Source: an uncultured Candidatus Saccharibacteria bacterium
GTDB taxonomy: Bacteria; Patescibacteriota; Saccharimonadia; Saccharimonadales; JAUPVS01
Length of the DNA: 64,000 bases
Direction of reading: 5' to 3'
Assembly (NCBI GenBank): GCA_964627095.1
Contig: CAZVKH010000004.1
Span: 2,886 to 66,885 of the forward strand
Below, one piece after another: positions 1-59,284 of the stretch; position 1 is the stretch's first letter, and each line of letters starts with the position of its first letter. The notes under the pieces were generated by a model. It did no database searches. It worked only from the letters and a program-made list of their open reading frames with translations, and had not been told where the DNA came from. The position numbers and the translations under genes were made by a program.

Positions 1-690
1 GGCTTTGACGACATCGCCGACGGTAAAGAGTCGTGGCAGAAGATGCTAGACGACTTTTATAAGAAGTTTCACCCCTTGGTCGAAGCCTCCGCCAACGTCA
101 GCCGCGAAGAAACCTCGCAAGCCCGCAAGCTCGGCACCGACCCCAAGAGCGGTAAACCCGTAATTGCCCGCTACGGTCGCTACGGCCCAATGCTGCAAAT
201 CGGCGAGGCCGAAGACGACGAAAAACCGCGTTTCGCTCCAATGCCAGCCAACGCCACCCTAGAAGATGTCACCTTCGAGCAGGCCATGGAGATGTTTAAG
301 CTACCACGCACTGTTGGCACCACGCCCGACGGCCAAGAAATCAAAGCCAACATCGGCCGCTTTGGCCCCTATATTCAAGTCGGCAAACTGTTTGTATCAA
401 TTAAAGACCACGACCCGCTAACTATCTCCGAAAAAGACGCTCAAGCCGCCTACGCCGAAAAACTCCAGAAAGAGGCCGACAAATACATCCAGCGCTTCAA
501 GGGTGGCATCGATGTCATCAACGGCCCTTATGGCCCCTATATTACTGATGGTAAGAAGAATGCCAAGATCCCCAAAGACCAAGAACCAGCCAAGCTCACC
601 GAAGCCGAATGCAAGCAGTTACTAGCCGACGCTCCCGCCAAAGGCAAGGGCCGCCGCAACTTCAAACGCAAACCTGCCAAGAAGAAATAA
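1..690 (+). CDS. topA: DNA topoisomerase I, C-terminal part (5' end lies upstream of window)
   Basis: Frame 1 is open from base 1 into ORF 43..690. It carries repeated topo I C-terminal repeat motifs (ARYGRYGPMLQ, IGRFGPYIQ, NGPYGPYITDG) and a Lys-rich tail. Stop TAA at 688-690. Confidence 0.7.
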   Translation, partial: GFDDIADGKESWQKMLDDFYKKFHPLVEASANVSREETSQARKLGTDPKSGKPVIARYGRYGPMLQIGEAEDDEKPRFAPMPANATLEDVTFEQAMEMFKLPRTVGTTPDGQEIKANIGRFGPYIQVGKLFVSIKDHDPLTISEKDAQAAYAEKLQKEADKYIQRFKGGIDVINGPYGPYITDGKKNAKIPKDQEPAKLTEAECKQLLADAPAKGKGRRNFKRKPAKKK

Positions 691-695
691 GTTAT

Positions 696-727
696 CCCCA
701 GCTTGCTATCTGGGGGAGTTATTATCT
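696..727 (+). terminator. weak terminator-like hairpin after topA
   Basis: CCCCAG (696-701) pairs with CTGGGG (710-715). It is followed only by a poor T tract (GAGTTATTAT). Confidence 0.4.
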
Positions 728-800
728 CGCAATATTCTACAACATTTTTTCTGCAGAACTGTCCATTTACTGCTACAATAAGTTCATAGCAACACTATGT

Positions 801-829
801 TTGACTTTTAAAAACTTTCGTTTTATAAT
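801..829 (+). promoter_or_regulatory. sigma-70 type promoter TTGACT-N17-TATAAT
   Basis: TTGACT at 801-806 and TATAAT at 824-829. It lies about 65 nt upstream of ATG 898, which has an SD. Confidence 0.7.
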
Positions 830-897
830 CATAGTAATGTCTTCGGTGGAACAGACAATCACTTACCCATAAAACTTGTAAGAAGAAGGAAGAGACC

Positions 898-1932
898 ATG
901 CCAGAACAAAACCCGACCGCCCTCGAGATTGAACAGATTATCAACGATATTCTGGCTACCATTGAGCGCGAACGTGAACGCGAAATTATCTCGCGTCGTT
1001 TTGGCCTGTTCGACCGCAAAGAAACCCTTGAACAAATTGGGGAACTCCTAGGCATTACCCGCGAACGGGTGCGCCAACTCGAAAAGTCGGTAATTACTCG
1101 CCTCAAGGCCACTGCCGAAAAAGACCTGCCGCACATCAATGATGTCCAAAGTCGCTTTGTCAGTGAACTCGAGCAAACCGGTGGCGTCAGCCGCGTTAGC
1201 GACCTTAGCGCCCGCCTCACCAAAGACAATAGCCGCACCGATCAGGCCCGCGTGTCATTTCTTACCCAATTGTGCCCCAGCCTGGCCGTTATCGACGAAA
1301 ACGATCACTTCCACCACGCTGTTGGCCTAGCCAAACTGCACACCGAAAAGCAAATGAAAGACCAAGTCACCAAGATTATCGACGCCATTAAAAAGATCGC
1401 CGAACCAACCACTATCGACAAGGTAGCCACCGCCGTTAAAGACAGTGATCAAGCCCACGTGGCCGCTCTGGCCAGCACCAGCAAAAAACTAGCTACCCTC
1501 AACGGTCGCTGGGGTCTAATTAAGTGGCCAATGGTCAACCCCAAGAACATCCGCGACAAAATCTACGTCATCCTCTACGAAAAAGGGAAGCCCCTCCACT
1601 TTAACGACATCTCCGAAGCCATCAAGAAGTCCGAATTCAAGCGCAAAGATGTTACCACCCAAGCCATCCACAACGAGCTGATCAAAGACGGCCGTTTCGT
1701 TCTAATTGGTCGTGGCATCTACGCACTCAAGGAATGGGGCTACGAGAAGGGAACTGTGGCCGACATCATCACCGAAGTTCTTAAGAAGGCCGGTGAACCA
1801 CTGCACCGTGACGAAATCGTCAAGCGTGTCCTTAAAAGCCGTCACGTCAAAGAAACCACCATCTTGCTGAACCTCCAGGGCAAACCCCAATTCAAGCGCG
1901 TCGCCAAAGCCACCTACGCCTTAGCCGACTAG
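898..1932 (+). CDS. sigma-70 region-4-like HTH protein with C-terminal HARE-HTH-like winged-helix modules
   Basis: N-terminal ISRRFGL..TLEQIGELLGITRERVRQLEKSVITRLK matches a sigma-70 region 4 HTH. The C-terminal segments PLHFNDISEAIKK..IGRGIYALKEWGY and PLHRDEIVKRV look HARE-HTH-like. AAGGAAGAG SD lies just upstream and a consensus promoter sits at 801-829. Confidence 0.6.
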   Translation: MPEQNPTALEIEQIINDILATIEREREREIISRRFGLFDRKETLEQIGELLGITRERVRQLEKSVITRLKATAEKDLPHINDVQSRFVSELEQTGGVSRVSDLSARLTKDNSRTDQARVSFLTQLCPSLAVIDENDHFHHAVGLAKLHTEKQMKDQVTKIIDAIKKIAEPTTIDKVATAVKDSDQAHVAALASTSKKLATLNGRWGLIKWPMVNPKNIRDKIYVILYEKGKPLHFNDISEAIKKSEFKRKDVTTQAIHNELIKDGRFVLIGRGIYALKEWGYEKGTVADIITEVLKKAGEPLHRDEIVKRVLKSRHVKETTILLNLQGKPQFKRVAKATYALAD

Positions 1933-1942
1933 GGTAGCTCAA

Positions 1943-2602
1943 ATGGGAACCCCAAAACGCCCCGAACAAGCCCGCCCCGGCATGCTGCGTTCATCATCAT
2001 ATCGTGTCGAGCAGGGTGGTGTTGCCACGACATTATTTGCACCTGATTTATCTTTGTTCGATCTTTTTCACCCCGATATTGACACTACCTTTACCGGTCA
2101 GATGGAACAGGTAACAACTACCCCTGATGCCATACATCCTGACCTACAGACATCGCCCGACCTATATCTGTTTACAGCCTACTCTGCCGTACCGGTTGCT
2201 GATGCCGTGCGCGGGTTCCATGAAGCCGCCGGCTGGTCGACTCCAGACCTTGGCTACATACAAGCCGACAGTCGGCTGTCGAAATGGTTCAGTGACGGTA
2301 GGGCTAAATCCGTCAGTGCCGCCGAATCAGAGCGCCTAGCCGCGCTCACTGACGGCAAGGAACATGTCTGTGTCGTTGATCAACACGTTTCTAGCGGCAT
2401 GACACTGGTTTACGCCGGCCACCTCCTTCAAAACGCTGGTGTCGAGGCAGCCTCGGCAATTCGGGGCTACGGCTGGTATCAAGATGCCCACTCTTGGGGT
2501 GTCGACCTCCAAGGCGTCACCTCGCATTGGCATGACTCAATGAACGAAATCGGCCACGACGCCTACCAGCAAACTAACCAAGGAGCCACCACCAATGCCT
2601 GA
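1943..2602 (+). CDS. hypothetical protein, phosphoribosyltransferase-like core
   Basis: EHVCVVDQHVSSGMTLVYAG resembles the type I PRTase PRPP loop (hydrophobic x4, acidic, xx, SGxT), but the second acidic residue is Gln. It starts 10 nt after the previous stop. Confidence 0.4.
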   Translation: MGTPKRPEQARPGMLRSSSYRVEQGGVATTLFAPDLSLFDLFHPDIDTTFTGQMEQVTTTPDAIHPDLQTSPDLYLFTAYSAVPVADAVRGFHEAAGWSTPDLGYIQADSRLSKWFSDGRAKSVSAAESERLAALTDGKEHVCVVDQHVSSGMTLVYAGHLLQNAGVEAASAIRGYGWYQDAHSWGVDLQGVTSHWHDSMNEIGHDAYQQTNQGATTNA

Positions 2603-3011
2603 AGCCTATCCCGAGCCAATCACCGACATGGTCATCGATATCGATGACTTTATGTGGTCTACCCAAGACCACGCCCGTGACCATCTTGCACTGTTTTATG
2701 ATTTAGACGAGTTACCCGAAAACCCCGATCATCCCGACAGGATTTACTGGTCGGCCGTCATAGAAGCGGTTGCCAGTTGCGCCAGTAAAGGCCCCAACGG
2801 AGAGGTTGACCTTTTATCTGCCGAGACAATCGAACAACTGCTTAGCACTGCCGAACACTCCGAAGTCGACACAACCGTCTTTCTGCAAACATTAGCAATG
2901 TATTGTAAGCGACGGGCACAGCAACGCAAAAGGGGACGACCCCTGCTTAGTCCAGAAGAGCAGCTAGAAAGGGCTTTGGATCACTTCGAACCCGAAAAGT
3001 GGTATCACTAA
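2595..3011 (+). CDS. hypothetical acidic protein, translationally coupled to 1943..2602
   Basis: The ATG at 2595 overlaps the upstream stop (ATGCCTGA). The 138-aa product is acidic and has no motif I can name. Confidence 0.4.
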   Translation: MPEAYPEPITDMVIDIDDFMWSTQDHARDHLALFYDLDELPENPDHPDRIYWSAVIEAVASCASKGPNGEVDLLSAETIEQLLSTAEHSEVDTTVFLQTLAMYCKRRAQQRKRGRPLLSPEEQLERALDHFEPEKWYH

Positions 3012-3241
3012 GCATCGTCTCTGCCGCCAAACCCCAAAATAACCGTTCACACAAAAACTGAACATTTTGCGAACACGCAATAGTACTAGGTAGTAGTGGA
3101 GTATTGAACAGACTCGCATAATTTAGCGCCATAGTGGGGGGTGCCAGGGAAATAATAAAAACAAATTTTTAAATTCGAAATAATAGTGGCAGAAATGGCG
3201 CAGAGTGTGGGTGTAGTAGAACCAATCCAGTCACATACTTC

Positions 3242-3269
3242 ATGTCGCACAATGTATATTTTACGACTA
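3242..3269. other. candidate dif-like recombination site (11-6-11 imperfect palindrome)
   Basis: ATGTCGCACAA TGTATA TTTTACGACTA. The inner arms GTCGCACAA and TTTTACGAC are 7/9 symmetric. The central hexamer and the CGCAxAATGTATATT core match E. coli dif as I recall it. It lies in the AT-rich spacer where + and - genes converge. Confidence 0.35.
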
Positions 3270-3667
3270 ATATATTGGGTTATAGAATGGTTGGCTATAC
3301 CTCTTCTATAGGGGAGTTATTCGGTAATTACGCTGCTAACGTCAAGTCTTAGCGTGCACGCGCCTGTCACGACCTGACAGTTCCTTTATCTTGCTAACCT
3401 GACTGCTACTGTGCGCTTTATCACTCCCAAGTTATCCACACATAATTCGTACAACGATTTGACTTTTCCACAGCTCTATTTGCAAATATTTGCTTTTTCT
3501 TCTATTCCATATTTTTACTAGCTTTCCCCCGCTCTGCCGCAAAATACAGTAAATTTGACTTATTACCTTTTGTGCAGTGTGGTATAGTTTTTTTCACAAA
3601 CGAGTCATGGAACGGTATGTGAACAAAAAGCGAACTAGAAGAGTGGTGGACTAGGGGGGCACAGCAG

Positions 3668-4561
3668 CTACAGATAATAAGCTCGGCCCGGTATCCTAAC
3701 GTCAATGTACTGAGCCGGTGTGACCTTGGTTTCTTCTAACTTCTTCTTGGTTGCCAAAAAGGTGCCTACTGCTTCCCTAGCCTGCGAATTAACACTGAAC
3801 TTTACATAATAGGGCTGGCCGGCAATCTTAACGTCGATCTGTTGGGCAACCTTGGGCAGAGTAATACTTTCGATGGCAATTTGTTTAGCTTTTAGCTGGG
3901 CAACCACCTCTGTTATAAACTGCACATCCTCGGCCGGCAAGACGGTCTTACCGGTGGCAACTTCTAGGCCACTTTGATCATTAACCACTGGCAAGGTGGC
4001 CCGTACAGTGGAGCTCAACTCCTTAGCTGGCATTATCACCGTACCACGCTTATCCAACACATAGGCCTGGCTGTTTGCCGTGAGGATAATCTGCGGCTGG
4101 GCAATACTGAGCGTTACAATTGGCCGGCGACTTACTAGTGGTAGCGTCAATGAAACTTGATCGACTTCGGGAAATTCGGCTCGAAAGGCTTTTTCGAAAC
4201 TACCGGTGTTAACAGTGAACTTAGTCCGGTTAAGTAGCGATTGGCTAAGAATCTTCTGGGCACCAACTTCGTAGTCGACTTTGTCGCGCAGCACAATGGC
4301 TTGTGGGCTATTGGCCGAAACAACCACCTTGGGGTTGGTGGTCAGACCCAAACAATACAGCACACTCACCGTAACGGCGACTAGGGCGACTATCGAAGGA
4401 AAGTTACGAACCCAGGTCTTGTCCCAAAACGAACCACCCTTGGAGCTCTTTTTGGCCGGTTGTGGCCGTGAAGTATCAGTTGCCCGGATAGTCTGATTAG
4501 TGTTGTAAGAAAATACACGTTTCTTAGGCTGACCGGGGTTACGTTCTTGTCGTCCCGACAT
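3668..4561 (-). CDS. ftsQ: cell division protein FtsQ/DivIB-like
   Basis: Basic cytoplasmic N-terminus, a single TM (FPSIVALVAVTVSVLYCLGL) and a POTRA/FtsQ-like external part. It is the last gene of the dcw cluster, 4 nt after murG. Confidence 0.55.
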   Translation of the reverse strand: MSGRQERNPGQPKKRVFSYNTNQTIRATDTSRPQPAKKSSKGGSFWDKTWVRNFPSIVALVAVTVSVLYCLGLTTNPKVVVSANSPQAIVLRDKVDYEVGAQKILSQSLLNRTKFTVNTGSFEKAFRAEFPEVDQVSLTLPLVSRRPIVTLSIAQPQIILTANSQAYVLDKRGTVIMPAKELSSTVRATLPVVNDQSGLEVATGKTVLPAEDVQFITEVVAQLKAKQIAIESITLPKVAQQIDVKIAGQPYYVKFSVNSQAREAVGTFLATKKKLEETKVTPAQYIDVRIPGRAYYL

Positions 4562-4565
4562 CGGC

Positions 4566-5732
4566 CTACTTCTCCCCTGCCCGCTTGCTAGCGACCGCGA
4601 CTAGTAATTGCGCCAAGCTTAGTGCCGCCTCTGGCACGGCCAAGCGGTGCAACTTTTGCCCCAATTCGTGACGCTTTTTTTGGTCACTTAACAGATCGGT
4701 GATGGCTTCTTTTAAGGCGTGCCCATGGTTAGACACCAGCTGGTCTTGGTCCAAAATCAGAGCGGCACCTTCTTCCTTTAGATACTGAGCATTCTTGGTT
4801 TGATGACCACCGGTTAGTAAGGGATTAGGAACAATGATGCAGGCTTTGGCTTGAATGCCAAACTCGGCAATGGTGTTGGCACCAGCCCGCGTTACGATCA
4901 CATCGGCGGCACCACTGTACTTATAAAGGTCGCCGTAAGGCATTAAACCGTGGACCTGCAGACGTTTGTTAGTGTAATCACCATAAACAGTTTCGTTGCC
5001 AACGCCAACCTGATGAATAATATGAAGTTTGGGCATGGCTTTGAACAGATCGGCGGCAAAATCAGCCAGGGCTAAGTTAATGCTTTGGGCACCATTACTG
5101 CCACCGGTGATCATCAACACCTGCGCGTCCGCCGGCAAATCCAGGTCACGACGGTATTGTTGTAGGAGCTTACCGGTTACTTTTTGGTAGTTATCGCTGA
5201 CAATAACACCGGTGTAGCGCATTTTTTGGACTGGATATTTGTAGTATTGCGGCGGCATACCAGTAGCATGGTAGGTCGCCCAGCGACTCACCAAACGGTT
5301 TGCCATGCCCGGTATGGCATCGGAATCGTGCGTTACCAGCGGATACTTATGTCGGCAGGCCAAGCCAATCGGAACACCCACAAAACCACCCTTCAGCAAG
5401 ATAACATCCGGTTTTAGACGTCTTAACAAGAACCAGCTCTCTATTACGCCCAAAAAGACATAAACCAGATCACGCAGGTTGCGTAGGTTGGTTTTAACAT
5501 CCAATAAACGTTTCAACCACGATTCACCATGATAACGGCGGAATTTACCGGCGTACACCTTATACTGGCGGTCAAACACCACCTGACCCTTGGTCATGCT
5601 ACTAAACCGACTGCCCCGTTCACCAACGTAGATAATCTCGGTGGTCGGGTCGAGCTCTTTAAGCTTGTGAGCGACGGCCAACAACGGGGTTATGTGACCC
5701 CCCGTTCCGCCGCCAGTGAGGAGCACTTTCAT
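4566..5732 (-). CDS. murG: UDP-GlcNAc:lipid I N-acetylglucosaminyltransferase MurG
   Basis: N-terminal LTGGGTGGHITPLLAV G-loop and C-terminal ITGGSNGA and TGGHQTKNA motifs, in the conserved dcw position. Confidence 0.9.
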   Translation of the reverse strand: MKVLLTGGGTGGHITPLLAVAHKLKELDPTTEIIYVGERGSRFSSMTKGQVVFDRQYKVYAGKFRRYHGESWLKRLLDVKTNLRNLRDLVYVFLGVIESWFLLRRLKPDVILLKGGFVGVPIGLACRHKYPLVTHDSDAIPGMANRLVSRWATYHATGMPPQYYKYPVQKMRYTGVIVSDNYQKVTGKLLQQYRRDLDLPADAQVLMITGGSNGAQSINLALADFAADLFKAMPKLHIIHQVGVGNETVYGDYTNKRLQVHGLMPYGDLYKYSGAADVIVTRAGANTIAEFGIQAKACIIVPNPLLTGGHQTKNAQYLKEEGAALILDQDQLVSNHGHALKEAITDLLSDQKKRHELGQKLHRLAVPEAALSLAQLLVAVASKRAGEK

Positions 5733-6939
5733 TGGCTCTTCCCTCCCTTGTTGTTTGACCAGTTTGCGAGCTAACCGCCGCCGTTCGATATACCGTATAA
5801 CGTGAAATCTGGAAGACTAAACCAACTGCTCCCAATACAAATACCAAGCTGGTTCCACCGTAACTAATAAATGGCAGCGTAATACCCTTAAGTGGCAGCA
5901 GCCCAAGCATGGCACCGACGTTAATTAGCACCTGGGTGCTAAGCCAAGCTAAGATGCCTACCACCAGTAAGCGGCTGTAGTCGTCGGGCGCCCGCTCGGC
6001 GATGCGGAATAACCTCCTAAAGAAGGTTATGAACAACGCCACCAGCGCGGTGACACCAATAAAGCCAAACTTCTCGGCCAGAATCGCAAAGATTGAGTCG
6101 TTGGCAGCTTCGGGCAAGTAACCATAGGCTTGCACGCTGTTAGCCACACCTAGGCCAAACATACCGCCGGAGCCAACTGTTATCAGAGCTTGGCAAACCT
6201 GGTAGCCAGCATTCTGACAATCTTGCTCAGGGTGCATAAAGGTCATTAAGCGGTCGCGGCGATAACTACTGCCAGCGATCAACAGCAAGCCACCAATGGC
6301 CACAATTGCGCCCACCATCATAACGCGTTTCATCGGCATGCCGGCCACAAAGGCCATCGAGCCAATCATCGCCACCATAACCGCCGTCGAACCAAAGTCG
6401 CTCTGTACCTTACCGACCACTAAGCCAATCGCCACCATGGCTATAACCAAGGGTTGTAAGGTCTTCTTAACATCACCCAGGCTGCCCTCTTGGATTCTTT
6501 CTACCAAAAAACAGGCTAGCCAAATTAACAAAGCAAATTTAATTAGTTCAGCCGCCTGAAAAGACATGCCGCCAACTTGAATCCAGCGATAAGCGCCATT
6601 CACCCGCTCACCAAACAAGCGTACTGCTATGGCGGCCAGAGCAGCCGTAATTAACAGTGGTCGCTGCAGATGCCGCCAAAAGTTTACCGGTATATTGGCC
6701 ATGGCCACAAAGGCCACAATACCTAGGGCAATGGCAATCATCTGTTTATTCACAAAATAATTGTCACCGACCTGTTTTTGAATGGCTAGCCCGGGGCTAA
6801 TGGCATAGAGTACGATCAGGCCAATCACAATCAAGGCAGTGGCAATTAGCAAAAGCCAGTAATCTGGTCGATGGCGCCGCTGGCGGGGACCGTCTAGGTC
6901 GGTCGGCTGCTGGCGCGTTTTTACACTACCTATAGCCAT
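5659..6939 (-). CDS. ftsW: SEDS family peptidoglycan polymerase FtsW
   Basis: Multi-TM protein with RWIQVGGMSFQAAELIKF and LPLKGITLPFISYGGTS motifs. I set the start at ATG 6939 (MAIGSV) because the longer ORF overlaps mraY. The 3' tail overlaps the murG start by 74 nt. Confidence 0.85.
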   Translation of the reverse strand: MAIGSVKTRQQPTDLDGPRQRRHRPDYWLLLIATALIVIGLIVLYAISPGLAIQKQVGDNYFVNKQMIAIALGIVAFVAMANIPVNFWRHLQRPLLITAALAAIAVRLFGERVNGAYRWIQVGGMSFQAAELIKFALLIWLACFLVERIQEGSLGDVKKTLQPLVIAMVAIGLVVGKVQSDFGSTAVMVAMIGSMAFVAGMPMKRVMMVGAIVAIGGLLLIAGSSYRRDRLMTFMHPEQDCQNAGYQVCQALITVGSGGMFGLGVANSVQAYGYLPEAANDSIFAILAEKFGFIGVTALVALFITFFRRLFRIAERAPDDYSRLLVVGILAWLSTQVLINVGAMLGLLPLKGITLPFISYGGTSLVFVLGAVGLVFQISRYTVYRTAAVSSQTGQTTREGRANESAPHWRRNGGSHNPVVGRRSQA

Positions 6940-10133: not shown

Positions 10134-10178
10134 GTTTTATCTTTTGTTTTAGTTTTTAGTATTTCGAAGTTTTATTTT

Positions 10179-10247
10179 GGAAGCCCGGGCGAACCCGGGA
10201 CTTCCGCTACAAAGCGTTGTTAAAGAACTTTAACGCGGACTTTGTAG
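10179..10247 (-). promoter_or_regulatory. two adjacent stable hairpins in the rsmH-ftsL intercistronic spacer
   Basis: The first hairpin spans 10179-10205 and reads GGAAG(U)CCCGGG-UUCG-CCCGGGCUUCC on the mRNA strand. The second spans 10207-10247, with CUACAAAG..CUUUGUAG enclosing GUUAAAG-UU-CUUUAAC. Confidence 0.55.
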
Positions 10248-10298
10248 GCTCGGGAGCTACTTTTTACCTGGATTGGCATGTATTTCCCTTTCTTTTTT

Positions 10299-11180: not shown

Positions 11181-11218
11181 TTTGTTTTTGTTTTGGTGTT
11201 TGTTGTTAACAAGGTCAC

Positions 11219-11432
11219 CTAATTGGTAATCAGCTTTTTGTTTTTTGTTTGGAACGTTTTTGTTTTTTTAGCTGTTATTTGAAAGACGTGTGGTGTAGGT
11301 TGCCCTACGTACTTCTTCTAAATAACCGTTTTGAGAGAGACTTATGTGTGAGGTGGAGTTTTGGGAGGTGTTTTGATAAAGGTGCGAGGATTTATTTGAG
11401 TGAATCCCGGATCACTGCTGATTACCAATTAG
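11219..11432. repeat. 16-bp perfect inverted repeat enclosing 182 bp in the mraZ-rsmH spacer
   Basis: CTAATTGGTAATCAGC at 11219-11234 and its reverse complement GCTGATTACCAATTAG at 11417-11432. The interior holds further nested hairpins (GTTATTT..AAATAAC, GTAGG-TTGC-CCTAC, GGATT..AATCC). Confidence 0.8.
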
Positions 11433-11498
11433 CTAACCTCGAGACTTATGCTCGATGTCATTTGAATGCTATTTGTTAAAGAACTGAACAGCGGCCGC

Positions 11499-11849
11499 TT
11501 AGGCTGCTTTCAAACGCCAATACTTGCCGGCCCGCACTGCCACTACTTTCTGGGTAATCCCAGCGTAGTCCAGTAAATGCTGTTCAAGCGTGATGCGGCC
11601 CTGCTTTTGATCGAGCTCGTTATCACACTTTCCCATCCTGAACTGCACGTTCAGATCGGCGGTTCGCTCATCCAGGATATTACCTTGGAGTTGCGGTTCA
11701 ACTTCTTCATCCCATACCTTTTTGGGGTACAGGTGCAGGTACTTCTGGAAACCTTGGGTAATGACTACTCCGGTTAAAAACTCGTGACGCAATTCGGCTG
11801 GAATAGTCAGCCTCCGCTTGTCATCAAGTTTCCTTTCGAAATAATCCAC
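11499..11849 (-). CDS. mraZ: transcriptional regulator MraZ
   Basis: Two SpoVT/AbrB-like half motifs, LDDKRRLTIPAELR and DQKQGRITLEQHLLDYAGI. GTG start preceded by an AAGAGGAA SD. First gene of the dcw cluster. Confidence 0.8.
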   Translation of the reverse strand: MDYFERKLDDKRRLTIPAELRHEFLTGVVITQGFQKYLHLYPKKVWDEEVEPQLQGNILDERTADLNVQFRMGKCDNELDQKQGRITLEQHLLDYAGITQKVVAVRAGKYWRLKAA

Positions 11850-11923: not shown

Positions 11924-11978
11924 TTACCCACTTTTACCCACTGACCTGAATATACTACCCACCCTTACCCACACGCAA
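11924..11978 (-). promoter_or_regulatory. predicted MraZ operator (4 phased GTGGGTA boxes) overlapping the mraZ promoter
   Basis: The plus strand carries TTACCCAC at 11924, 11934 and 11965, and CTACCCAC at 11955, giving spacing of 10/21/10 bp. A TTGCGT (-35, 11978..11973) and TATATT/TAGTAT (-10, 11957..11949) flank or overlap the boxes. Confidence 0.65.
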
Positions 11979-12034
11979 CCCCTTTCCTTCCTTTTTATAG
12001 ATAAAGTACCTAAAGTTATCCACAGTTGTGTCAT

Positions 12035-14537: not shown

Positions 14538-14552
14538 ATTGTACGCTATAAT
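14538..14552. promoter_or_regulatory. back-to-back divergent leaderless promoters (AlkD-like / DUF1345)
   Basis: On the minus strand, TACAAT (14543..14538) lies N6 before ATG 14531. On the plus strand, TATAAT (14547-14552) lies N7 before ATG 14560. Confidence 0.6.
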
Positions 14553-14559
14553 GCTTATG

Positions 14560-15213
14560 ATGAAACTGGCGCGCATTCACCGCAAAACCGAACCAATCTG
14601 GCACGTTCAACTGGCCATAGGTGTGGCCATTGCCGTGCAACTCCTTCTTAACAAAAGTTTTGCGGTTGGCCCTCAGAACCTGTTAGCCGGCATTGAGCTA
14701 TTGTTGCTGATTGCGATTAGTATTCCGGGGCGCAAACTTCATAAACACAAGCCTTTGGTAATCCGTCATCTTCTGGCAATTATACTATTGGGAATTATCA
14801 CTGTTTCTAACATTTTGTCGCTGGTGTTGGTTAGCATCGACCTGATTAACGGGTCGTCGGCCGACGGCCACGACTTAATCTTTTCGGCGGTGGTAATATT
14901 TGCCACCAATATTGTTATTTTTGGCTTACTCTACTGGGAGCTCGACGAAGATACTGGTGACGAAGACCCCGACACCACCCGTGATTTCTTGTTTCATCAA
15001 CTCGTCTTGCCTGCCAGCATCACCAAACAACCCTACTGGAACCCAACCTTCTTTGACTACTTGTATGTTTCCATTACCAACGCCACCGCTTTCAGCCCGT
15101 CCGACACCTTCCCGCTAACTCACCGGGCCAAGTTACTTATGGCAATCCAGTCCTTAACTTCGCTCACAACCGTGGTACTGGTGGCATCACGAGCCATTGC
15201 CATTCTGCGCTAG
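14560..15213 (+). CDS. DUF1345-like integral membrane protein
   Basis: 4-5 TM helices and YLYVSITNATAFSPSDT resembling the DUF1345 signature. The track ORF 14203.. is an antisense extension over the AlkD-like gene. Start set at ATG 14560, 7 nt after TATAAT (14547-14552). Confidence 0.55.
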   Translation: MKLARIHRKTEPIWHVQLAIGVAIAVQLLLNKSFAVGPQNLLAGIELLLLIAISIPGRKLHKHKPLVIRHLLAIILLGIITVSNILSLVLVSIDLINGSSADGHDLIFSAVVIFATNIVIFGLLYWELDEDTGDEDPDTTRDFLFHQLVLPASITKQPYWNPTFFDYLYVSITNATAFSPSDTFPLTHRAKLLMAIQSLTSLTTVVLVASRAIAILR

Positions 15214-15679: not shown

Positions 15680-16123
15680 ATGAATCGACGCGTCGCCGCT
15701 CGCGGCATTATTGTGCACAATGGCCGTTTGCTATGCGCCCAGCTTAAAGCCTACGACGACAAGCCTGCTCAGGATTTTTGGTCGACACCAGGTGGTGGCG
15801 TTAACCCCGGCGAAGCCCTCATCCCTGCCCTGGAACGTGAAATCATCGAAGAAACTGGCATTAAGCCAAAGGTTGGTCGGTTACTATACATCCAACAGTT
15901 CGTCTGGCATGCCAATGAGCAGATGGAATTCTTTTTCTACATAGAAAATGCCAGCGACTACCTAAATATCGACATCACCCAAACCAGCCATGGTGCAGCC
16001 GAAATTGACCGCATCGAGTTCGTTGACCCCAAAGCAGTTACCGTGCTCCCCAAATTCTTGAAAGATGAAGACATGAATACTGTTGCAGCGCAGACTCAAC
16101 CCAAGATATTTAACTATCTGTAG
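15680..16123 (+). CDS. NUDIX hydrolase
   Basis: Nudix box GGGVNPGEALIPALEREIIEETGI. Confidence 0.85.
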   Translation: MNRRVAARGIIVHNGRLLCAQLKAYDDKPAQDFWSTPGGGVNPGEALIPALEREIIEETGIKPKVGRLLYIQQFVWHANEQMEFFFYIENASDYLNIDITQTSHGAAEIDRIEFVDPKAVTVLPKFLKDEDMNTVAAQTQPKIFNYL

Positions 16124-24288: not shown

Positions 24289-25455
24289 ATGAATCAGTCA
24301 GTTGTAATTTTAGGCCGCCAGCCTGCCTTAGGCCTGGCCGAACTCGAAAGCCTCTACGGCGCTCCCGCCCTGCACCCAGTTAGCGCCCAGGTGGCTCTGC
24401 TTGACGTCGACCCGGCCACTGTTAACTTTGACCGCCTCGGTGGCACTGTTAAGCTTGCCAAGCTACTAACCCGCCTCAATAACACTTCTTGGCAATCAGT
24501 CGTACGCTACATCGCCAAAACCATTCCCGACCATCTGCAATATATTCCCGAAGGAAAAATCCGCCTTGGTTTTAACGTCTACGGCCTAGATGCCAGCGTC
24601 GCCGAAATCAACCGCAGCGCCCTAGAAGTTAAAAAAGCCATCAAAAAAGCCGGCCGCTCGGTGCGCGTCGTACCCAACACCACGCCCGACCTTAACAGCG
24701 CCCAAACCCTGCACAATCAGCTAACCGGCCCGACCGGGCTAGAATTCATTGTGGCCAAAGATGGCACCGGTGTTTTGCTGGCTCAAGTAACCCATGTGCA
24801 AGATATCAACGCCTACGCCGCTCGCGACCAGGCCCGCCCCAAACGTGACGCCCGGGTTGGCATGCTCCCACCCAAACTAGCCCAGATCATCGTTAACCTA
24901 GCCGCTACCGATACTGGCACCGTCTTAGATCCCTTCTGCGGTACCGGTGTAATTTTGCAAGAAGCCTTACTCGACGGCCATAATGCCTACGGCAGCGACT
25001 TAGAACCACGCATGATCGACTATTCACGCACCAACCTCGACTGGCTAGCCCAAAAATACACTCTGGCGGGCACAGTAGCTCTTGAAGTTGGCGATGCCAC
25101 CGACCACCATTGGTCCGAACCGTTTGACGTAGTCGCTGGTGAGACCTACCTGGGGCGCCCTTTCTCGGCCGAACCGACGGGTGAAATCCTCGGTCAAGTG
25201 CGGCGTGACGTCGATACAATTCACCGTAAATTCCTTAAAAACCTGGCTCGCCAAACGCAGCCCGGCTTTCGAGCCTGCCTAGCGGTTCCAGCCTGGATTA
25301 CCAAAAATGGCATTTTGCACCTCCCTACCCTTGATTCTCTCGAGGATTTAGGGTATACTCGGATGAGTTTTGTTCACGCAGGCAATACAGACCTAGTCTA
25401 TTATCGCCCAGGCCAAGTGGTTGGCCGTGAACTCGTAGTACTAATAAGGAAGTAG
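24289..25455 (+). CDS. SAM-dependent RNA/DNA methyltransferase (TRM11/RlmL-like)
   Basis: Motif I VLDPFCGTGVILQEA and the acidic loop GSDLEP. The N-terminal domain is of unknown type. Confidence 0.6.
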   Translation: MNQSVVILGRQPALGLAELESLYGAPALHPVSAQVALLDVDPATVNFDRLGGTVKLAKLLTRLNNTSWQSVVRYIAKTIPDHLQYIPEGKIRLGFNVYGLDASVAEINRSALEVKKAIKKAGRSVRVVPNTTPDLNSAQTLHNQLTGPTGLEFIVAKDGTGVLLAQVTHVQDINAYAARDQARPKRDARVGMLPPKLAQIIVNLAATDTGTVLDPFCGTGVILQEALLDGHNAYGSDLEPRMIDYSRTNLDWLAQKYTLAGTVALEVGDATDHHWSEPFDVVAGETYLGRPFSAEPTGEILGQVRRDVDTIHRKFLKNLARQTQPGFRACLAVPAWITKNGILHLPTLDSLEDLGYTRMSFVHAGNTDLVYYRPGQVVGRELVVLIRK

Positions 25456-25745: not shown

Positions 25746-27227
25746 CTACTTTATATAGCCCTTCTCTTTGGCAATTTCACGATACATGTTTGTCATGTAA
25801 ACAAGTCCATGCATGGACTCACGGTAGCCAAGAAAGTCATCTATGCCTAGGACAGAATCACTCGTTAAACCTTTATAGTGCTCAACTCGCTCTTCGGTGC
25901 GTTGCCTGATACCATCTGGCCCACCATCTAATTGGATTTGCCGGTCCATTAGGCGTTTCTCTACGCCATCAAAGCCACCAACATGAGACTGAATCGCCCT
26001 CAGAACAGGGCTGCGCTGTGGCTTTACATAGTTAGCCGGCATTACGGCAAGTATGTCGACTACACTCTCCAAACCATAGGCGTTAGCAAGACTAGTCATA
26101 AGTTCTGCCTGCTTGCCGCCCTTCTCCTGTCCCTCCCCGATAAGACTTCGCAAATCTACGCCTGTAATTACTCCTAGGTCGTTAGCAAAGTTCTTGGCGT
26201 CACCATAGCCTTGCTTATTTCGGCCGCCATATTCTGCCCGTAACTCTTCTACCGTCAGTCCAAACTCGTTGTCGCCGTCTACCAATAAGCCACCTTGAGT
26301 GTGTGTATACTCGTGTTCAATAAGCGCTAGCTCTCGATCACGCTCGCCTTCGCCATAATTATCAGCTGCTACGTCTTCAGCATCAAGAAAACGTTCGGCC
26401 AGCGTAGACGTAATACACAGCTGCTGTACGCCATCAATAGAAGTAACCCAAGCTAAAGCTTCAATTTCATCACGACCGAGGGCGTTAAAAAACTTCTGCC
26501 TTCGTTCAATTAGCCCTTCTTCCCATTGTTTTTTGGCAGCTATGTCAATTTCCCAATTATCGTAGGCTGTCTTTTTTTCGGCTGGACTCATCTTTTCTAA
26601 AGCTTCATCTGTTGGAAACTTCGGTAGTTTAAAGTTATAGACATCACTGCCATTCTCGTTGATAGAAAGCACCCTTAACTTATATGGGTCTTCGTTTTCA
26701 GCCGTAATACCCAGACGCTCTTTAACATCGTCGAGCAGACCATCGTCTATAGCCTGAGTCATGCGTTCTGTGAATTGTATGTCAGTAAACTTGTCATAGG
26801 CTTCTGCCCTAGCCTTTTCTGACAGCTGTGACTGGTTATGCTCATCCTCCAGAGCTTGTCGAATGTCATCAAAGCCAGTTACATGTTTTCGAGCCAACAC
26901 TAAGGTTGTATCAGCAATGTACTCGCGTTCCGCAAACTGCAAGCCACCTTCACGTTCCTTCTCCTTCACTGCGACCAATTTGGCGGCTATAGACAGGAAG
27001 ACTAAGCTTCTTTCGGGTGCATCAAAAAAGCTGTCATCAATTCCAAAGTCCTCGATAAGCTCCTGCGCCGCTGATTCAACACTTTCACGATTTGCTTCTA
27101 GCTCAGGTATCGAACCGGCAAATTGATCCATTATCTCAGCAGCAGCTTGCACAGACCGATTCATCTCTGGGGTTTGCTGTTCTGTAAGCGGCTCTGTTGG
27201 TGGTTTTTGTGTTTGTAGTTCTGTCAT
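25746..27227 (-). CDS. hypothetical protein with HExxH metalloprotease-like motif
   Basis: 494 aa with no signal peptide or TM. It has a single LIEHEYTHTQGG motif with a downstream EELRAEYGG. Start set at ATG 27227, downstream of the promoter at 27253-27281. Confidence 0.5.
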   Translation of the reverse strand: MTELQTQKPPTEPLTEQQTPEMNRSVQAAAEIMDQFAGSIPELEANRESVESAAQELIEDFGIDDSFFDAPERSLVFLSIAAKLVAVKEKEREGGLQFAEREYIADTTLVLARKHVTGFDDIRQALEDEHNQSQLSEKARAEAYDKFTDIQFTERMTQAIDDGLLDDVKERLGITAENEDPYKLRVLSINENGSDVYNFKLPKFPTDEALEKMSPAEKKTAYDNWEIDIAAKKQWEEGLIERRQKFFNALGRDEIEALAWVTSIDGVQQLCITSTLAERFLDAEDVAADNYGEGERDRELALIEHEYTHTQGGLLVDGDNEFGLTVEELRAEYGGRNKQGYGDAKNFANDLGVITGVDLRSLIGEGQEKGGKQAELMTSLANAYGLESVVDILAVMPANYVKPQRSPVLRAIQSHVGGFDGVEKRLMDRQIQLDGGPDGIRQRTEERVEHYKGLTSDSVLGIDDFLGYRESMHGLVYMTNMYREIAKEKGYIK

Positions 27228-27252
27228 GAAGAATAATGTATTAACAGATACA

Positions 27253-27281
27253 ATACTAGCATAAGCTTGATGTTTTGTCAA
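27253..27281 (-). promoter_or_regulatory. promoter TTGACA-N17-TAGTAT for the HExxH protein gene
   Basis: The minus strand reads TTGACAAAACATCAAGCTTATGCTAGTAT. A ~19-nt leader without an SD precedes ATG 27227. Confidence 0.65.
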
Positions 27282-27300
27282 TGAAGTTATACGGGGGTGA

Positions 27301-27328
27301 AACAAAAAACGCCCCTCTGGGGAGCGTT
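27301..27328 (-). terminator. terminator-like hairpin after the small Pro-rich gene
   Basis: The minus strand reads AACGCUCCCC-AGA-GGGGCGUU followed by UUUUGUUU. The stem has a 2-nt bulge. Confidence 0.5.
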
Positions 27329-45732: not shown

Positions 45733-47052
45733 TTAGCGCTTGTGTCGACGAACGGCGGCGACAGCCACGCCCATACCGGCGACAGCCGTAACACCAGCGA
45801 CTTTAGCAGCTCGTATTACTTGACGGCGACGCTTTTCGTGAGAGTCGTTGGGTTTGACTTCTTCATCAACAGCTTTGTCAGCTGGGATTTGGGCAGCAGC
45901 TATCTCAGGAGCCACTTGTGGGGCGGCCGCAACTGACTCACCAAGCTCGGCTAATCGGCGTTCAACTGCCTGGTTGACGATGAAGTCGAAATCACCAAAC
46001 CTAGCATCGATTATTCTCTGGACGCTGGCCAATTTTTCTTTTACTTCTTGGGCAAATTCTTCTTCTTTTAGGGCGAAGTAGGCGTCAATACCTTCTTTAC
46101 TTAACACTTCGGGGGTGGCCCTAGCAGGAGCAGTTGCTTCAACTGGTTCAGCGGCTGGCTCATCGTCGCCTCTTAGAATTTTAGGAACCACCCTTGTAGG
46201 TGCCGTGCCAGGGATGCGGCGTTTACGGCGACGCAACACAGGCGTGTTGTCAGGGTAGACCATATCTTCTGGAAGTAATGCTGGTGGTAGTTTAACCTTT
46301 TTTCCACGTTTATCGCGGACCGTGTCTCGACGCCAGCCAAGTACGTTGTCACGCTCAGGTATAGCTATATATGAACCCGTCGATCGCTCTTCTGGGCTGT
46401 TCAAATATACCGGGTGAACGTCTTGGTATTCGGCCTTAAGATCGGGGTCAGCGGCTAAAGCATCGGCACCAAATAATTCCTTGAACCGTTCCTCTGTGAG
46501 AACCTTTTTATAGTGCATCGGCTTTGAAAAAAATACTTCGTCAGCTTTTTCACCTTTTAGAGTGTAGTACCTTGGCGCTTCAGTATCTGTTGCATGGCCG
46601 TCAGTTGGTTTGGCAAGATTGGGTGCTGGCGAAGTGGCCGGGCTAGCAGTTGGCCAGCTAATCTTCTTATATAGCGTGTTGGGAGGACTAGGAACGACGG
46701 GCATTGCCTGGGTCTCACCGTCATTAGCTCCTACCACGCGCTTCTTTACATCGCGGGTTGGCGCAGCCGGTTCTGCTGCGGGTGCTGAATCCTGAGCTCC
46801 CTGACCGAACCTGCCAACAAGACCAGTGCCTCGTACAAGACGAGGGGTTATTTCATCGCGTGGCACACCAGTTACTGCAGCTATTGCATCAATGTCTAAA
46901 TATCCTGCCAGTTTCACCTGATCTGGAGTTGGCTGTGCCGCTACCGGAGGTGCTGCGGGCATCTGAATTTCGCCCCAATCTACAATAGGCAAAGCTGGAC
47001 CAGCTTCGGGGCCAGGTGCGGGCACAGCTGAAGGAAAGCGTGGATTTGTCAT
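45733..47052 (-). CDS. hypothetical Pro/Ala-rich protein with C-terminal TM anchor
   Basis: 439 aa, with C-terminal VAGVTAVAGMGVAVAAV followed by RRHKR. No known motif. Start set at ATG 47052, 7 nt after TGTTAGTAT. Confidence 0.45.
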   Translation of the reverse strand: MTNPRFPSAVPAPGPEAGPALPIVDWGEIQMPAAPPVAAQPTPDQVKLAGYLDIDAIAAVTGVPRDEITPRLVRGTGLVGRFGQGAQDSAPAAEPAAPTRDVKKRVVGANDGETQAMPVVPSPPNTLYKKISWPTASPATSPAPNLAKPTDGHATDTEAPRYYTLKGEKADEVFFSKPMHYKKVLTEERFKELFGADALAADPDLKAEYQDVHPVYLNSPEERSTGSYIAIPERDNVLGWRRDTVRDKRGKKVKLPPALLPEDMVYPDNTPVLRRRKRRIPGTAPTRVVPKILRGDDEPAAEPVEATAPARATPEVLSKEGIDAYFALKEEEFAQEVKEKLASVQRIIDARFGDFDFIVNQAVERRLAELGESVAAAPQVAPEIAAAQIPADKAVDEEVKPNDSHEKRRRQVIRAAKVAGVTAVAGMGVAVAAVRRHKR

Positions 47053-47059
47053 AGGTGTT

Positions 47060-47068
47060 ATACTAACA
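47060..47068 (-). promoter_or_regulatory. extended -10 promoter TGTTAGTAT, leaderless 439-aa gene
   Basis: TGT+TAGTAT, then 7 nt (AACACCT), then ATG 47052. Confidence 0.6.
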
Positions 47069-47090
47069 TAAACGGGTTGTTTTTGCAACT

Positions 47091-47588
47091 TTATTTTTCT
47101 GTATGTTGGTCTACGGACTGGTATGGAATATGGCACATTCCCCTGCCGGTACGTTCGGCAAATTTCTGGTGATAGGCTTCGGCCGGGTAAAACTCACTTG
47201 CTGGTGAGATTTGGGTAACAATCGGTTCTGGCCAGTTATCTTGGGCTTCGGCTTTGGCGGCCTCGGCAGCCTTTTGCTGTGACTTGTCTTGGTAGAAAAT
47301 AGCACTGCGATAGCTGTCGCCGACATCGGGACCTTGGCGATTGAGCTGGGTTGGGTCATGCAGTCTAAAGAAGTGTTGCAGTAGAATTTGGTAACTGACT
47401 TGTTTAGGGTCAAAAGTGACCTGGACGGCTTCGGCGTGGCCGGTGTTATGGGTGCAAACCTCTTCGTAAGTGGGGTCTTGGGTATGGCCACCGGTGTAGC
47501 CAACAATTGTTTTGGTGACGCCGGGAATTTGGTCAAAATAGTATTGCACTCCCCAAAAACAGCCGGCCGCGAAAATTGCTTGTTCCAT
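47091..47588 (-). CDS. msrA: peptide-methionine (S)-S-oxide reductase MsrA
   Basis: AAGCFWGVQYYF catalytic Cys motif and GHAEAVQVTFDP. Confidence 0.9.
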   Translation of the reverse strand: MEQAIFAAGCFWGVQYYFDQIPGVTKTIVGYTGGHTQDPTYEEVCTHNTGHAEAVQVTFDPKQVSYQILLQHFFRLHDPTQLNRQGPDVGDSYRSAIFYQDKSQQKAAEAAKAEAQDNWPEPIVTQISPASEFYPAEAYHQKFAERTGRGMCHIPYQSVDQHTEK

Positions 47589-57710: not shown

Positions 57711-57747
57711 GATGTGAAGCAGTTTGCCAACTCCCCCGTTTCACCTC

Positions 57748-57776
57748 TTGACCAAAAGCTAACAGATGTGTATAAT
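57748..57776 (+). promoter_or_regulatory. promoter TTGACC-N17-TATAAT for rpmE
   Basis: TTGACC at 57748-57753 and TATAAT at 57771-57776. The ATG is 12 nt downstream. Confidence 0.65.
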
Positions 57777-57788
57777 TGCCACCTGACT

Positions 57789-58157
57789 ATGAAAAAAGAT
57801 TTACACCCTACCAATTACCGCCCGGTCGTCTTTGAGGACCTTAATAACGGTACCCGCTATTTGACCCGTTCAACCGTTGATGCCGAAGAAAACGTCACCA
57901 TTGATGGCGTCGAATACCCCTTGGTAAAGGTACACATTAGCAGCAGCTCACACCCCTTCTTTACTGGCGAAGAGCGCATTGTTGACATCGAAGGCCGCGT
58001 TGACAAGTTTAAGGCCCGCCGCGAAGCTGCTCAAAAAGCTTTGGACGCTCGCAAAAAAGCCGCCGGTAAGGTTCGCGTTCGTAAGTCTGACGACGAAGAC
58101 GAAGCTGTTGACGAAGTCGCCACCAAGAAACCCGAACCTGCTACCGCTGACAAATAA
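57789..58157 (+). CDS. rpmE: 50S ribosomal protein L31, type B (no Cys motif) with charged C-terminal extension
   Basis: MKKDLHPTNYRPVVF...SSSHPFFTG. Start set at ATG 57789, downstream of a TTGACC-N17-TATAAT promoter. The last ~40 aa are a K/E/D/A-rich extension. Confidence 0.8.
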   Translation: MKKDLHPTNYRPVVFEDLNNGTRYLTRSTVDAEENVTIDGVEYPLVKVHISSSSHPFFTGEERIVDIEGRVDKFKARREAAQKALDARKKAAGKVRVRKSDDEDEAVDEVATKKPEPATADK

Positions 58158-58172
58158 CTAAGTTAACCCATA

Positions 58173-58208
58173 AAGCCGCCTTTTCACTTGAACTAGGCGG
58201 TTTTTGTA
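58173..58208 (+). terminator. rho-independent terminator after rpmE
   Basis: AAGCCGCCU...AGGCGGUUU stem (core at 58176-58181 and 58195-58200) followed by a TTTTT run at 58201-58205. Confidence 0.75.
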
Positions 58209-58225
58209 TATACTAAAGGATAACT

Positions 58226-59284
58226 ATGGAAGAAAAAGAAGCCAGTCTCCGCCAAGAACACCAGGAACTGCAAGCCAAGCTGCAGGACCCGGCAATTTTT
58301 AGCGCGCCCGAATACCCCAAGCTGGCCCGTCGCCAGAGTCAGCTCGATAACCTGCTTGAACTGTTCGACCGCCGAGCGGTCGCCCTAAAGGCCCAGGCAT
58401 CTTCTAAAGAAATGGCAGCTGGTTCCGACGCCGAACTGGCTGACATGGCACGGGCCGAGCTAGACGAGCTCGAAGCCACCTTGACTGAAATTAACAGCGC
58501 GCTAGACGAAGCCCTCACCCCTAAAGATCCTAACGACGAACGCGATTGTATCATCGAAATTCGCGGTGCTGCCGGTGGCGACGAATCCAGCCTATTTGCC
58601 GGTGAACTGTACCGCATGTACGCCCGTTTGGCCGAACGCCGTGGCTATAAAATTGAGCTGCTAAACGAAAGCCCCAACGAAGTCGGTGGTTTTAAAGAAG
58701 TTGTCTTCGCCGTACGCGGGCTCGAAGCCTATCGCACTTTTAAATTCGAAGCCGGTGTCCACCGCGTCCAACGTGTTCCCGCCACCGAAAGCCAAGGCCG
58801 CATCCACACTTCTACCGTAACCGTGGCAGTGTTGCCCGAGGCCGAAGAATCGGATATCGAAATCAACCCTAGCGATCTACGTATTGATGTCTACCGCTCC
58901 GGGGGTCACGGTGGCCAGTCGGTTAACACCACCGACTCGGCGGTGCGCATTACCCACCTACCCTCTGGCTTAGTAGTTTCTAACCAAGACGAAAAGTCGC
59001 AGATTAAGAACAAGGCCAAGGCCATGAGCGTCCTGCGCTCCCGCCTGTTACAACTTAAGATCGACGAAGAGCAGAAAGAGCTATCTGACGCCCGTAAAAA
59101 ACTAATCGGCTCCGGTGACCGTTCCGAAAAGATTCGCACCTATAACTTCCCACAGGACCGCATTACCGACCATCGCATCAACTACAGCCGCAGCAACATA
59201 CCGGTGGCGCTGAACGGTGAAATCGACGACCTGGTCGAGCACCTGCAGGCCTACGAGCGTGAACTGATCAGTCATGACAGTTAA
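58226..59284 (+). CDS. prfA: peptide chain release factor 1
   Basis: PxT motif ([14 protein letters not shown]) and GGQ motif ([19 protein letters not shown]). Confidence 0.95.

Follow-up and report, generated by a model that had tools for sequence, protein, structure and literature searches.

The dif sites of the XerC/XerD (Escherichia coli) and CodV/RipX (Bacillus subtilis) systems span 28 bp, in which a 6-bp centre separates two 11-bp arms that are partly dyad-symmetric (PMC5357621). The architecture of dif, with a centre of 6-8 bp, and the criteria for recognizing it have been described (PMC5357621, PMC2731167, PMC3025954); by one rule, positions 7-12 and 17-22 form more than 4 palindromic pairs (PMC3025954). 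Here we examine a 64-kb stretch of DNA from a Saccharimonadales bacterium (the whole stretch is called the window) in which a 28-bp element of the same 11-6-11 architecture lies in a gene-free spacer past the 3' end of an ftsQ-like gene. The element is probably the chromosomal dif-type recombination site of this bacterium and very probably an Xer target, mainly because it co-occurs with Xer genes in independent lineages and combines the 11-6-11 layout with a TGTATA centre. Like the sites of E. coli and B. subtilis, it is found once per chromosome, in non-coding DNA between convergent genes, and is exploited by mobile elements; unlike them, it lies off the GC-skew shift-point in this lineage.

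The left arm (3242-3252, ATGTCGCACAA), the centre TGTATA (3253-3258) and the right arm (3259-3269, TTTTACGACTA) can be read directly as the 11-6-11 imperfect palindrome that an earlier note on this DNA (the original prediction) had described, with 7/9 symmetry between the inner arms GTCGCACAA and TTTTACGAC. The family consensus, GTCGCACAA-TGTATA-TTTTGCGAC, is 8/9 symmetric in its inner arms, the window copy having A for G at 3263. The 28-mer is single-copy in the window: the degenerate core has one match when up to 3 mismatches are allowed, no match appeared in 100 shuffles, and there is no second copy of the 24-mer within 5 mismatches. Against E. coli dif, the centre agrees at 6/6 positions, the left arm at 6/11 and the right arm at 4/11 (16/28 overall), while the consensus inner arm plus centre agrees at 14/16. 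The centres are identical, and the inner arms read CAcAA/TTtTG here vs CATAA/TTATG in E. coli. In contrast to XerC/XerD-dif, the outer ends of both arms read GTCG/CGAC, which leaves no recognizable XerD arm. The near-identity of the two arms favours a single recombinase or two of the same specificity.

The pattern GTCGNANAATNTANATTNTNCGAC was scanned against one genome per species (185,579 species) and returned at least 120 matching stretches, each from a different assembly, with one site apiece among the matches listed. Nearly all of those listed belong to Saccharibacteria or other Patescibacteria (Moraniibacteriota, Magasanikbacteria, Parcubacteria/Paceibacterota, Peribacteria, Daviesbacteria), and the two complete genomes among them have one site match each. 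The centre is TGTATA in 102 of the 120 matches listed; 89 of these 102 sites, with the centre read as TGTATA, follow the pattern GTCG(C/T)ACAA...TTTT(G/A)CGAC. In a minority of sites, among them those of the Woesebacteria-type loci, the centre has the opposite orientation with respect to the arms. In alignments of relatives' spacers, GTCGCAAAATATACATTGTGCGAC (the window site on the opposite strand) is invariant or shows 1-2 differences and the remainder is mostly unalignable; the core is invariant though the FtsQ proteins of these relatives are only 37-66% identical and the flanking DNA has diverged beyond alignment. Since information content reaches background 2-3 bases outside the 24-bp core, the functional unit is likely ~28 bp. 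Judged from these comparisons of sequence, the site is a class of its own, distributed phylum-wide, and full-text literature searches found no paper describing a dif site or Xer system of Patescibacteria. One diverged copy outside the search pattern, GTCGTACAATGTATATTTTACGTC, occurs on a 1.05-Mb Joint Genome Institute (JGI) contig (L202:18563-18586), where a 172-aa gene separates it from ftsQ.

Xer-family genes, detected by tblastn at loci lacking the Saccharibacteria gene order, are present within ~1 kb of the site in L040 and L050 (Moraniibacteriota), L030 and L081 (Woesebacteria-type), L023 and L039. NCBIfam assigned all four of the site-adjacent recombinases that were scanned to the XerA/XerC/XerD group, with L023 exceeding the XerA cut-off, and the nearest solved structures are those of XerD (1A0P) and XerA (5HXY, 4A8E). 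The L030-type Xer has counterparts of 60-85% identity among many proteins labelled Woesebacteria or Patescibacteria, and conservation of this order points to a housekeeping gene. For a blind prediction, one such Xer homologue (P0134, 71% identical, from a Woesebacteria genome) was picked by protein similarity only; at its locus, L199, GTCGCAAAATGTATATTGTGCGAC lies 390 bp upstream of xer, so that L199 joins the six loci above with xer beside the site. The dif-like reading put forward in the original prediction thus gains strong comparative support from a core conserved phylum-wide, once per assembly, from Xer adjacency and from the success of the blind prediction.

Near-identical arms and a lone adjacent xer in other classes fit a system with its own site and perhaps a single recombinase. 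A module of one xer and its site is known for XerS-difSL of streptococci and lactococci (PMC5357621), to which the Moraniibacteriota and Woesebacteria-type loci, with one xer 0.3-0.9 kb from the site, are alike; the slight arm asymmetry here could also direct cleavage order, as in XerS-difSL and the XerH-difH system of Helicobacter and Campylobacter. In contrast to those systems, the centre is 6 bp here and 11 bp in difSL, neither difSL nor difH is related to the site in sequence, the site-adjacent recombinases are nearest XerD and XerA rather than XerS or XerH, and no recombinase gene adjoins the site in Saccharibacteria, including the window. Archaeal XerA is a single recombinase acting on a symmetric-armed site. 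For the Moraniibacteriota recombinase, the best scores come from the archaeal XerA model and the XerA structure 5HXY; the host here, however, is bacterial, and the comparison with archaea was made at the level of the recombinase. At L023:4537-5403, on a contig labelled as a Methanomicrobia archaeon (label unverified), a XerA gene lies 16 bp from a site variant with perfectly palindromic arms (GTCGTATAAT...ATTATACGAC); the site class may reach beyond Patescibacteria, or the contig may be mislabelled.

In the mechanism that we propose, an Xer-family tyrosine recombinase would bind the two near-identical inverted arms (GTCGCAMAA) and cut at the borders of the 6-bp TGTATA centre, and a crossover between the two site copies of a chromosome dimer would resolve the dimer before division. 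The recombinase would be encoded elsewhere in the genome here; in other Patescibacteria classes it is encoded right beside the site. The sole conserved arm asymmetry (CACAA vs CAAAA) is coupled to the orientation of the centre and, by analogy with single-recombinase systems, probably determines the order in which strands are exchanged. The site lies where the gene blocks converge, off the switch in compositional strand bias, and would fall within the 3' untranslated region of the left operon. Xer binding and cleavage, dimer resolution and any role of the adjacent module are steps that we infer from these comparisons.

The original prediction took the spacer for a replication terminus. Its account of gene orientation is borne out: all 4 coding sequences to the left are on the + strand, and among ~55 genes at 3.6-57.6 kb only 2-3 credible ones are on the + strand (~14548-15213, 15680-16123, 24289-25455). 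In the closest relative (L201) the + strand block extends 18.8 kb to the left of the site. The nearest genes converge on the site in 76/82 syntenic loci and 9/21 non-syntenic loci, compared with a background of 53/576 gene junctions. Composition gives a different result. Local GC skew computed on the whole sequence is confounded by the fixed gene content of each side and was therefore replaced by third-codon skew, sorted by strand and side. In the window (read on the + strand) this skew averages -0.40 for nine + genes and +0.10 for 58 - genes, and the + genes have similar values to the left of the site (-0.26 to -0.51) and within the right block (-0.22 to -0.51). Across 98 Saccharibacteria loci third-codon skew depends on strand and is independent of side (constant offset ~-0.11, side term ~0), and the same holds for the 18.8 kb left of the site in L201; topA-side genes therefore resemble lagging-strand genes. 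Non-syntenic Patescibacteria differ, in that genes of the same orientation have different skew on the two sides (replication, or side, term ~+0.05). Intergenic skew did not discriminate between the models, and no skew switch was met in L201 or on the 1.05-Mb contig when the sequence was followed as far as 18.8 kb to the left of the site.

Cumulative GC skew has no extremum at 3.3 kb in the window, an outcome that the original prediction had itself named beforehand as speaking against it. Genes do converge here and in relatives, and the homologous palindrome that it proposed to look for in related genomes is conserved, but the third-codon skew of Saccharibacteria is side-independent; the reading as a terminus is thus only partly supported. 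The site may be terminus-proximal and is not, to judge from composition, the compositional terminus here; a distance of no more than a few per cent from the terminus could be compatible with the data. In the complete genome CP064960.1 the site is at 48.7% of the record, counted from a first base that may lie anywhere relative to the origin. As a separate observation, the + genes of window 1-3011 and L201:1-18600 are strongly C-rich at third positions (third-position GC skew, GC3 skew, -0.13 to -0.58), like the few + genes in the opposite block; transcription thus apparently runs head-on to replication over at least 19 kb that include topA, der and pth.

Several of our results count against a chromosomal dif site. 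Between -18.8 kb (L201) and +60 kb (window) third-codon skew does not change sign, which places the site at least 19 kb from any skew shift-point, and in the complete genome CP023991.1 the site is at 75.8% of the record, again counted from a first base that may lie anywhere relative to the origin. No Xer gene was found by tblastn with four Xer queries in the window or in any Saccharibacteria locus examined, and Pfam found no Xer, FtsK or DnaA in 40 window open reading frames (ORFs; the 30 largest plus 10 near the spacer). The best 120 matches of the Xer search include no Saccharibacteria Xer, all being from Woesebacteria or unclassified Patescibacteria. At the level of the site, the window copy has 4 pairs under the rule of PMC3025954 (the consensus has 5), and the right arm agrees with the canonical XerD arm at only 4-5/11 positions, a departure that the original prediction had noted. 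Finally, the site is tightly linked to ftsQ throughout one class and at one Magasanikbacteria locus, which is unusual for dif and could indicate a function in the division operon.

Other explanations can be weighed against the same evidence. The site might serve mainly as an attachment site, into which phages or integrative elements insert by their own or the host's recombinase, with no role in dimer resolution. The degenerate pattern used for the genomes recovered 62 IMG/VR viral-contig stretches with site variants, where our own rough estimate is ~1 by chance; the contigs examined are tailed-phage fragments (terminase large subunit, portal-like genes), their sites often lie 58-340 nt from the contig end and just upstream of the terminase region (L145, L188, L198, L184, L196, L187, L150, L152), and relatives differ in the genes that they have between topA and the site. 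The viral sites mostly have the flipped arm/centre arrangement of the Woesebacteria-type loci, no Xer-like gene was found in the viral-contig sequence examined, and sites at contig ends are what would be expected if phages recombined with the host site. Integrative mobile elements exploiting Xer (IMEX), however, use a pre-existing dif, so the phage data are equally compatible with a dif site, and a site used by mobile elements only would hardly stay invariant, once per assembly, across a phylum, or adjoin a housekeeping-like Xer gene conserved at 60-85%; we consider an attachment site in this restricted sense unlikely. Less likely again is a role in expression of the convergent operons, in which the palindrome would bind a dimeric transcription factor as an operator or form part of a bidirectional terminator. 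Such a role would account for the position of an inverted repeat between two 3' ends, for the small hairpin 30 nt from it, for the weak promoter-like hexamers that a consensus scan places over the right arm and for the very tight ftsQ linkage in Saccharibacteria, but in other classes the same core stands amid unrelated genes, with an Xer recombinase gene as the only recurrent neighbour, and the non-palindromic 6-bp centre is kept together with its orientation, a trait of recombination sites and not of operators.

That the spacer is instead a replication origin, with the palindrome as an associated element, is very improbable. DnaA boxes do occur beside an AT-rich stretch, with a perfect TTATCCACA at 3432-3440 and TTTTCCACA at 3464-3472, the latter conserved in ~50 lineages and followed by AT-rich conserved DNA. 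The boxes number just one or two, however, genes point towards the spacer for at least 19 kb to its left and 54 kb to its right, where an origin would have them point away, there is no sign change in GC skew, dnaA, dnaN and gyrB were not found by Pfam on the 40 window ORFs, and the same box upstream of mraZ looks regulatory; gene orientation, box number and skew thus led us to reject the spacer as oriC. A chance palindrome in AT-rich non-coding DNA might explain why E. coli dif is matched at only 16 of 28 positions; its probability is negligible, since none of the shuffled windows matched even with 3 mismatches and the core, unlike its flanks, is kept in 120/120 listed independent assemblies, conservation that already refutes it. 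A dif-type site bound by an Xer recombinase is therefore the explanation that we prefer.

Some viral contigs carry two sites. Two exact reverse-complement variant copies 727 bp apart, the layout of an invertible DNA segment, are present at L156:10335-11085 and L168:2306-3056 (both IMG/VR). On a 66.5-kb IMG/VR contig (L194:7470-7636) two copies 143 bp apart have identical palindromic arms and opposite centres (TGTATA, TATACA), a pair that resembles the paired attP of CTX-type phages.

Patescibacteria make up a large share of bacterial diversity, and to our knowledge their chromosome maintenance is almost uncharted. A phylum-wide site of 24-28 bp could help to orient and check metagenome-assembled genomes, to locate the cognate recombinase and to reveal integrated elements, and, for the few Saccharibacteria that can be cultured, it could offer a conserved and neutral place to integrate DNA.

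In Saccharibacteria the site is accompanied by a ~180-bp module on the ftsQ-proximal side of the spacer (Table 1), the end motifs of which are a constant ~172 nt apart in ~45 lineages and which is absent from other Patescibacteria classes; the original prediction does not mention it. About 140 nt of non-conserved DNA separate it from the small hairpin near the site. The DnaA box within ATTTGACTTTTCCACAG is a perfect TTATCCACA in about half of the lineages; in the window, TCCCCTGC lies between the AT-rich inverted repeat and the second TTGAC block. The promoter-like element reads ATTTGAC(A/T)TTT followed by TATAGTTTTTT, with ~28 nt from TTGAC to the -10 element (start to start), and any transcript from this -35/-10-like pair, which is on the + strand, would run antisense into the 3' end of ftsQ. 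No RNA family was found by Rfam at gathering score in the whole window (at E ≤10, positions 2900-3800 gave only a trivial match), no tRNA or tmRNA by ARAGORN, and no consensus RNA structure by RNAalifold, which gave an alignment of 49 modules a consensus energy of zero on either strand; with neither an RNA family nor a consensus structure, the blocks of the module are treated as DNA-level signals. The module appears to be a class-specific array of such signals, separate from the site. Two candidates were rejected. A small ORF starting from (A/G)TGAACA in the module is interrupted by stops or lacks a start in L015 and L016, and TTGACT-N22-TATAGT is not a general promoter form, the promoter of the gene for the sigma-r4/HARE-HTH protein (a sigma-70 region 4 plus HARE-HTH protein) being a canonical TTGACT-17-TATAAT.

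The nearest analogue of the module is found in the plasmid sites cer and psi, where conserved DNA that binds proteins extends for a few hundred bp to one side of an Xer core (PMC5357621), and the likeness is one of analogy only. Unlike cer and psi, the module starts ~190 bp from the core, past a non-conserved stretch, has a DnaA box and promoter-like signals in place of ArgR, PepA or ArcA sites, and is missing from other Patescibacteria classes. A tentative and rather doubtful synthesis of all these observations would be a Patescibacteria-specific dif class (GTCGCAMAA arms, TGTATA) served by one XerD/XerA-like recombinase. In Saccharibacteria the site would have become detached from the recombinase gene and from the compositional terminus, and both it and the 180-bp DnaA-box/promoter module would be tied to the point where the division operon ends; the box is found upstream of mraZ as well. 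The module would then be either cer/psi-like accessory DNA or a DnaA-controlled antisense promoter coupling division genes to replication, and tailed phages would integrate via the host Xer. Convergence of genes without a skew switch, at the end of a division operon and beside a DnaA-box module, raises a testable question about the coupling of replication, dimer resolution and division.

Table 1. Features of the spacer and its flanking genes, by window position (dot, no strand).
Feature	Positions	Strand	Basis or remarks
Topoisomerase I (topA), C-terminal part	43-690	+	Pfam/NCBIfam
Sigma-70 region 4 + HARE-HTH protein, 344 aa	898-1932	+	Pfam/NCBIfam
138-aa gene without assigned function, end of + strand block	2595-3011	+	
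Gene-free spacer, 656 bp, flanked by two convergent 3' ends	3012-3667	.	Coding sequences 2595-3011 (+) and 3668-4561 (-)
Probable dif-type site ATGTCGCACAATGTATATTTTACGACTA, 28 bp	3242-3269	.	Sequence, conservation, Xer adjacency elsewhere
Small hairpin CCTCT-TCTAT-AGGGG (3300-3314), then AGTTATT	3300-3321	+	Stem kept, loop varies in Saccharibacteria
Terminator-like hairpin CTGTCA-CGACC-TGACAG, T-rich tail	3364-3380	+	Non-conserved spacer part
AAGTTATCCACA, containing perfect DnaA-box 9-mer TTATCCACA (3432-3440)	3429-3440	+	Close relatives only
ATTTGACTTTTCCACAG, TTGAC then DnaA-box-like TT(A/T)TCCACA	3457-3473	+	Module start; best-conserved spacer block after dif-type site
AT-rich block GCAAATATTTGCTTTTTC	3482-3499	.	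Most relatives: inverted repeat CGTGAAAA-N7-TTTTCACG
Promoter-like: second ATTTGACTT, then TGGTATAGTTTTTT	3553-3593	+	TTGAC(A/T) + extended -10, conserved geometry
Direct repeat TGAACA-N5-CGAACT (consensus TGAACA-TTTTA-CGAACA)	3620-3635	+	Module end
ftsQ-like gene, 297 aa, last gene of dcw cluster	3668-4561	-	Pfam/NCBIfam, homologues

The spacer is non-coding and lies where the strands converge, both flanking coding sequences ending there, as the original prediction stated. It is also the longest intergenic region, twice the length of the next (318 bp), because an apparent gap of 637 bp at 14577-15213 encodes a + strand membrane protein, the gene for which is conserved in relatives. The further statement that it is the most AT-rich did not hold up: its GC content is 41.5% (window mean 49.8%), compared with 35.7% at 691-897, 38.4% at 11181-11498 and 40.0% at 10134-10298. 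The hairpin at 3300-3321 is possibly a weak terminator of the + operon, in which case the site would fall in the 3' untranslated region of that operon.

Window genes were identified by Pfam and NCBIfam and include a housekeeping set with secA, pyrG, several tRNA synthetases and two release factors; this gene content identifies the DNA as a Saccharimonadales chromosome (Patescibacteria, or candidate phyla radiation, CPR) and excludes a mobile element. The ftsQ-like gene ends a division and cell-wall (dcw) cluster that runs on the - strand from 11849 down to 3668 (mraZ, rsmH, a small ftsL-like gene, ftsI, mraY, ftsW, murG, ftsQ-like). Its homologues are annotated as FtsQ or hypothetical protein, in hosts assigned to Candidatus Saccharimonadales or Saccharibacteria, and from 91% down to 37% identity each has a gene-free spacer of ~440-1050 bp past ftsQ, followed by convergent genes. 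The distance from the ftsQ 3' end to the site in Saccharibacteria is usually ~370-540 bp (range ~180-1440). At a Magasanikbacteria locus (L069, oriented 5334-6458) the site lies 43 bp past an FtsQ/POTRA-like gene, in reversed orientation relative to ftsQ; as this is another class, the link between site and division cluster may predate Saccharibacteria.

On the other side of the site, the sigma-r4/HARE-HTH gene is followed by two small genes (219 aa and 138 aa), the second ending at 3011. Gene content between the sigma-r4/HARE-HTH gene and the site differs among relatives, with a hydrolase gene in L008 and other genes elsewhere. The sigma-r4/HARE-HTH protein has region 4 at its N-terminus, lacks the other sigma regions and is 44-99% identical among relatives; in nearly all Saccharibacteria loci its gene is 0.2-5 kb from the site, and the arrangement runs dprA, topA, sigma-r4/HARE-HTH gene, site. 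The order at the corresponding place in B. subtilis is dprA-topA-trmFO-codV(xerC).

The 12-mer AAGTTATCCACA recurs at 12013-12024, upstream of mraZ (11499-11849). In this region (11930-12030, - strand) a promoter-like TTGCGT...TAGTATATT is overlapped by four repeats of GTGGGTA(A/G) that resemble MraZ operator boxes, and a perfect DnaA box, CTGTGGATAACTT, lies ~45 nt upstream. The layout of mraZ repeats and DnaA box is kept in L005, L008, L011, L014, L015 and L016.

Elsewhere in the window, two large ORFs on the - strand (25746-27305, 519 aa; 45733-47136, 467 aa) have no Pfam match at E ≤1e-5. Within the long - strand run there is also a three-gene + strand island (57714-60071) that includes a release-factor gene (58226-59284), and its third-codon skew is like that of other + strand genes.

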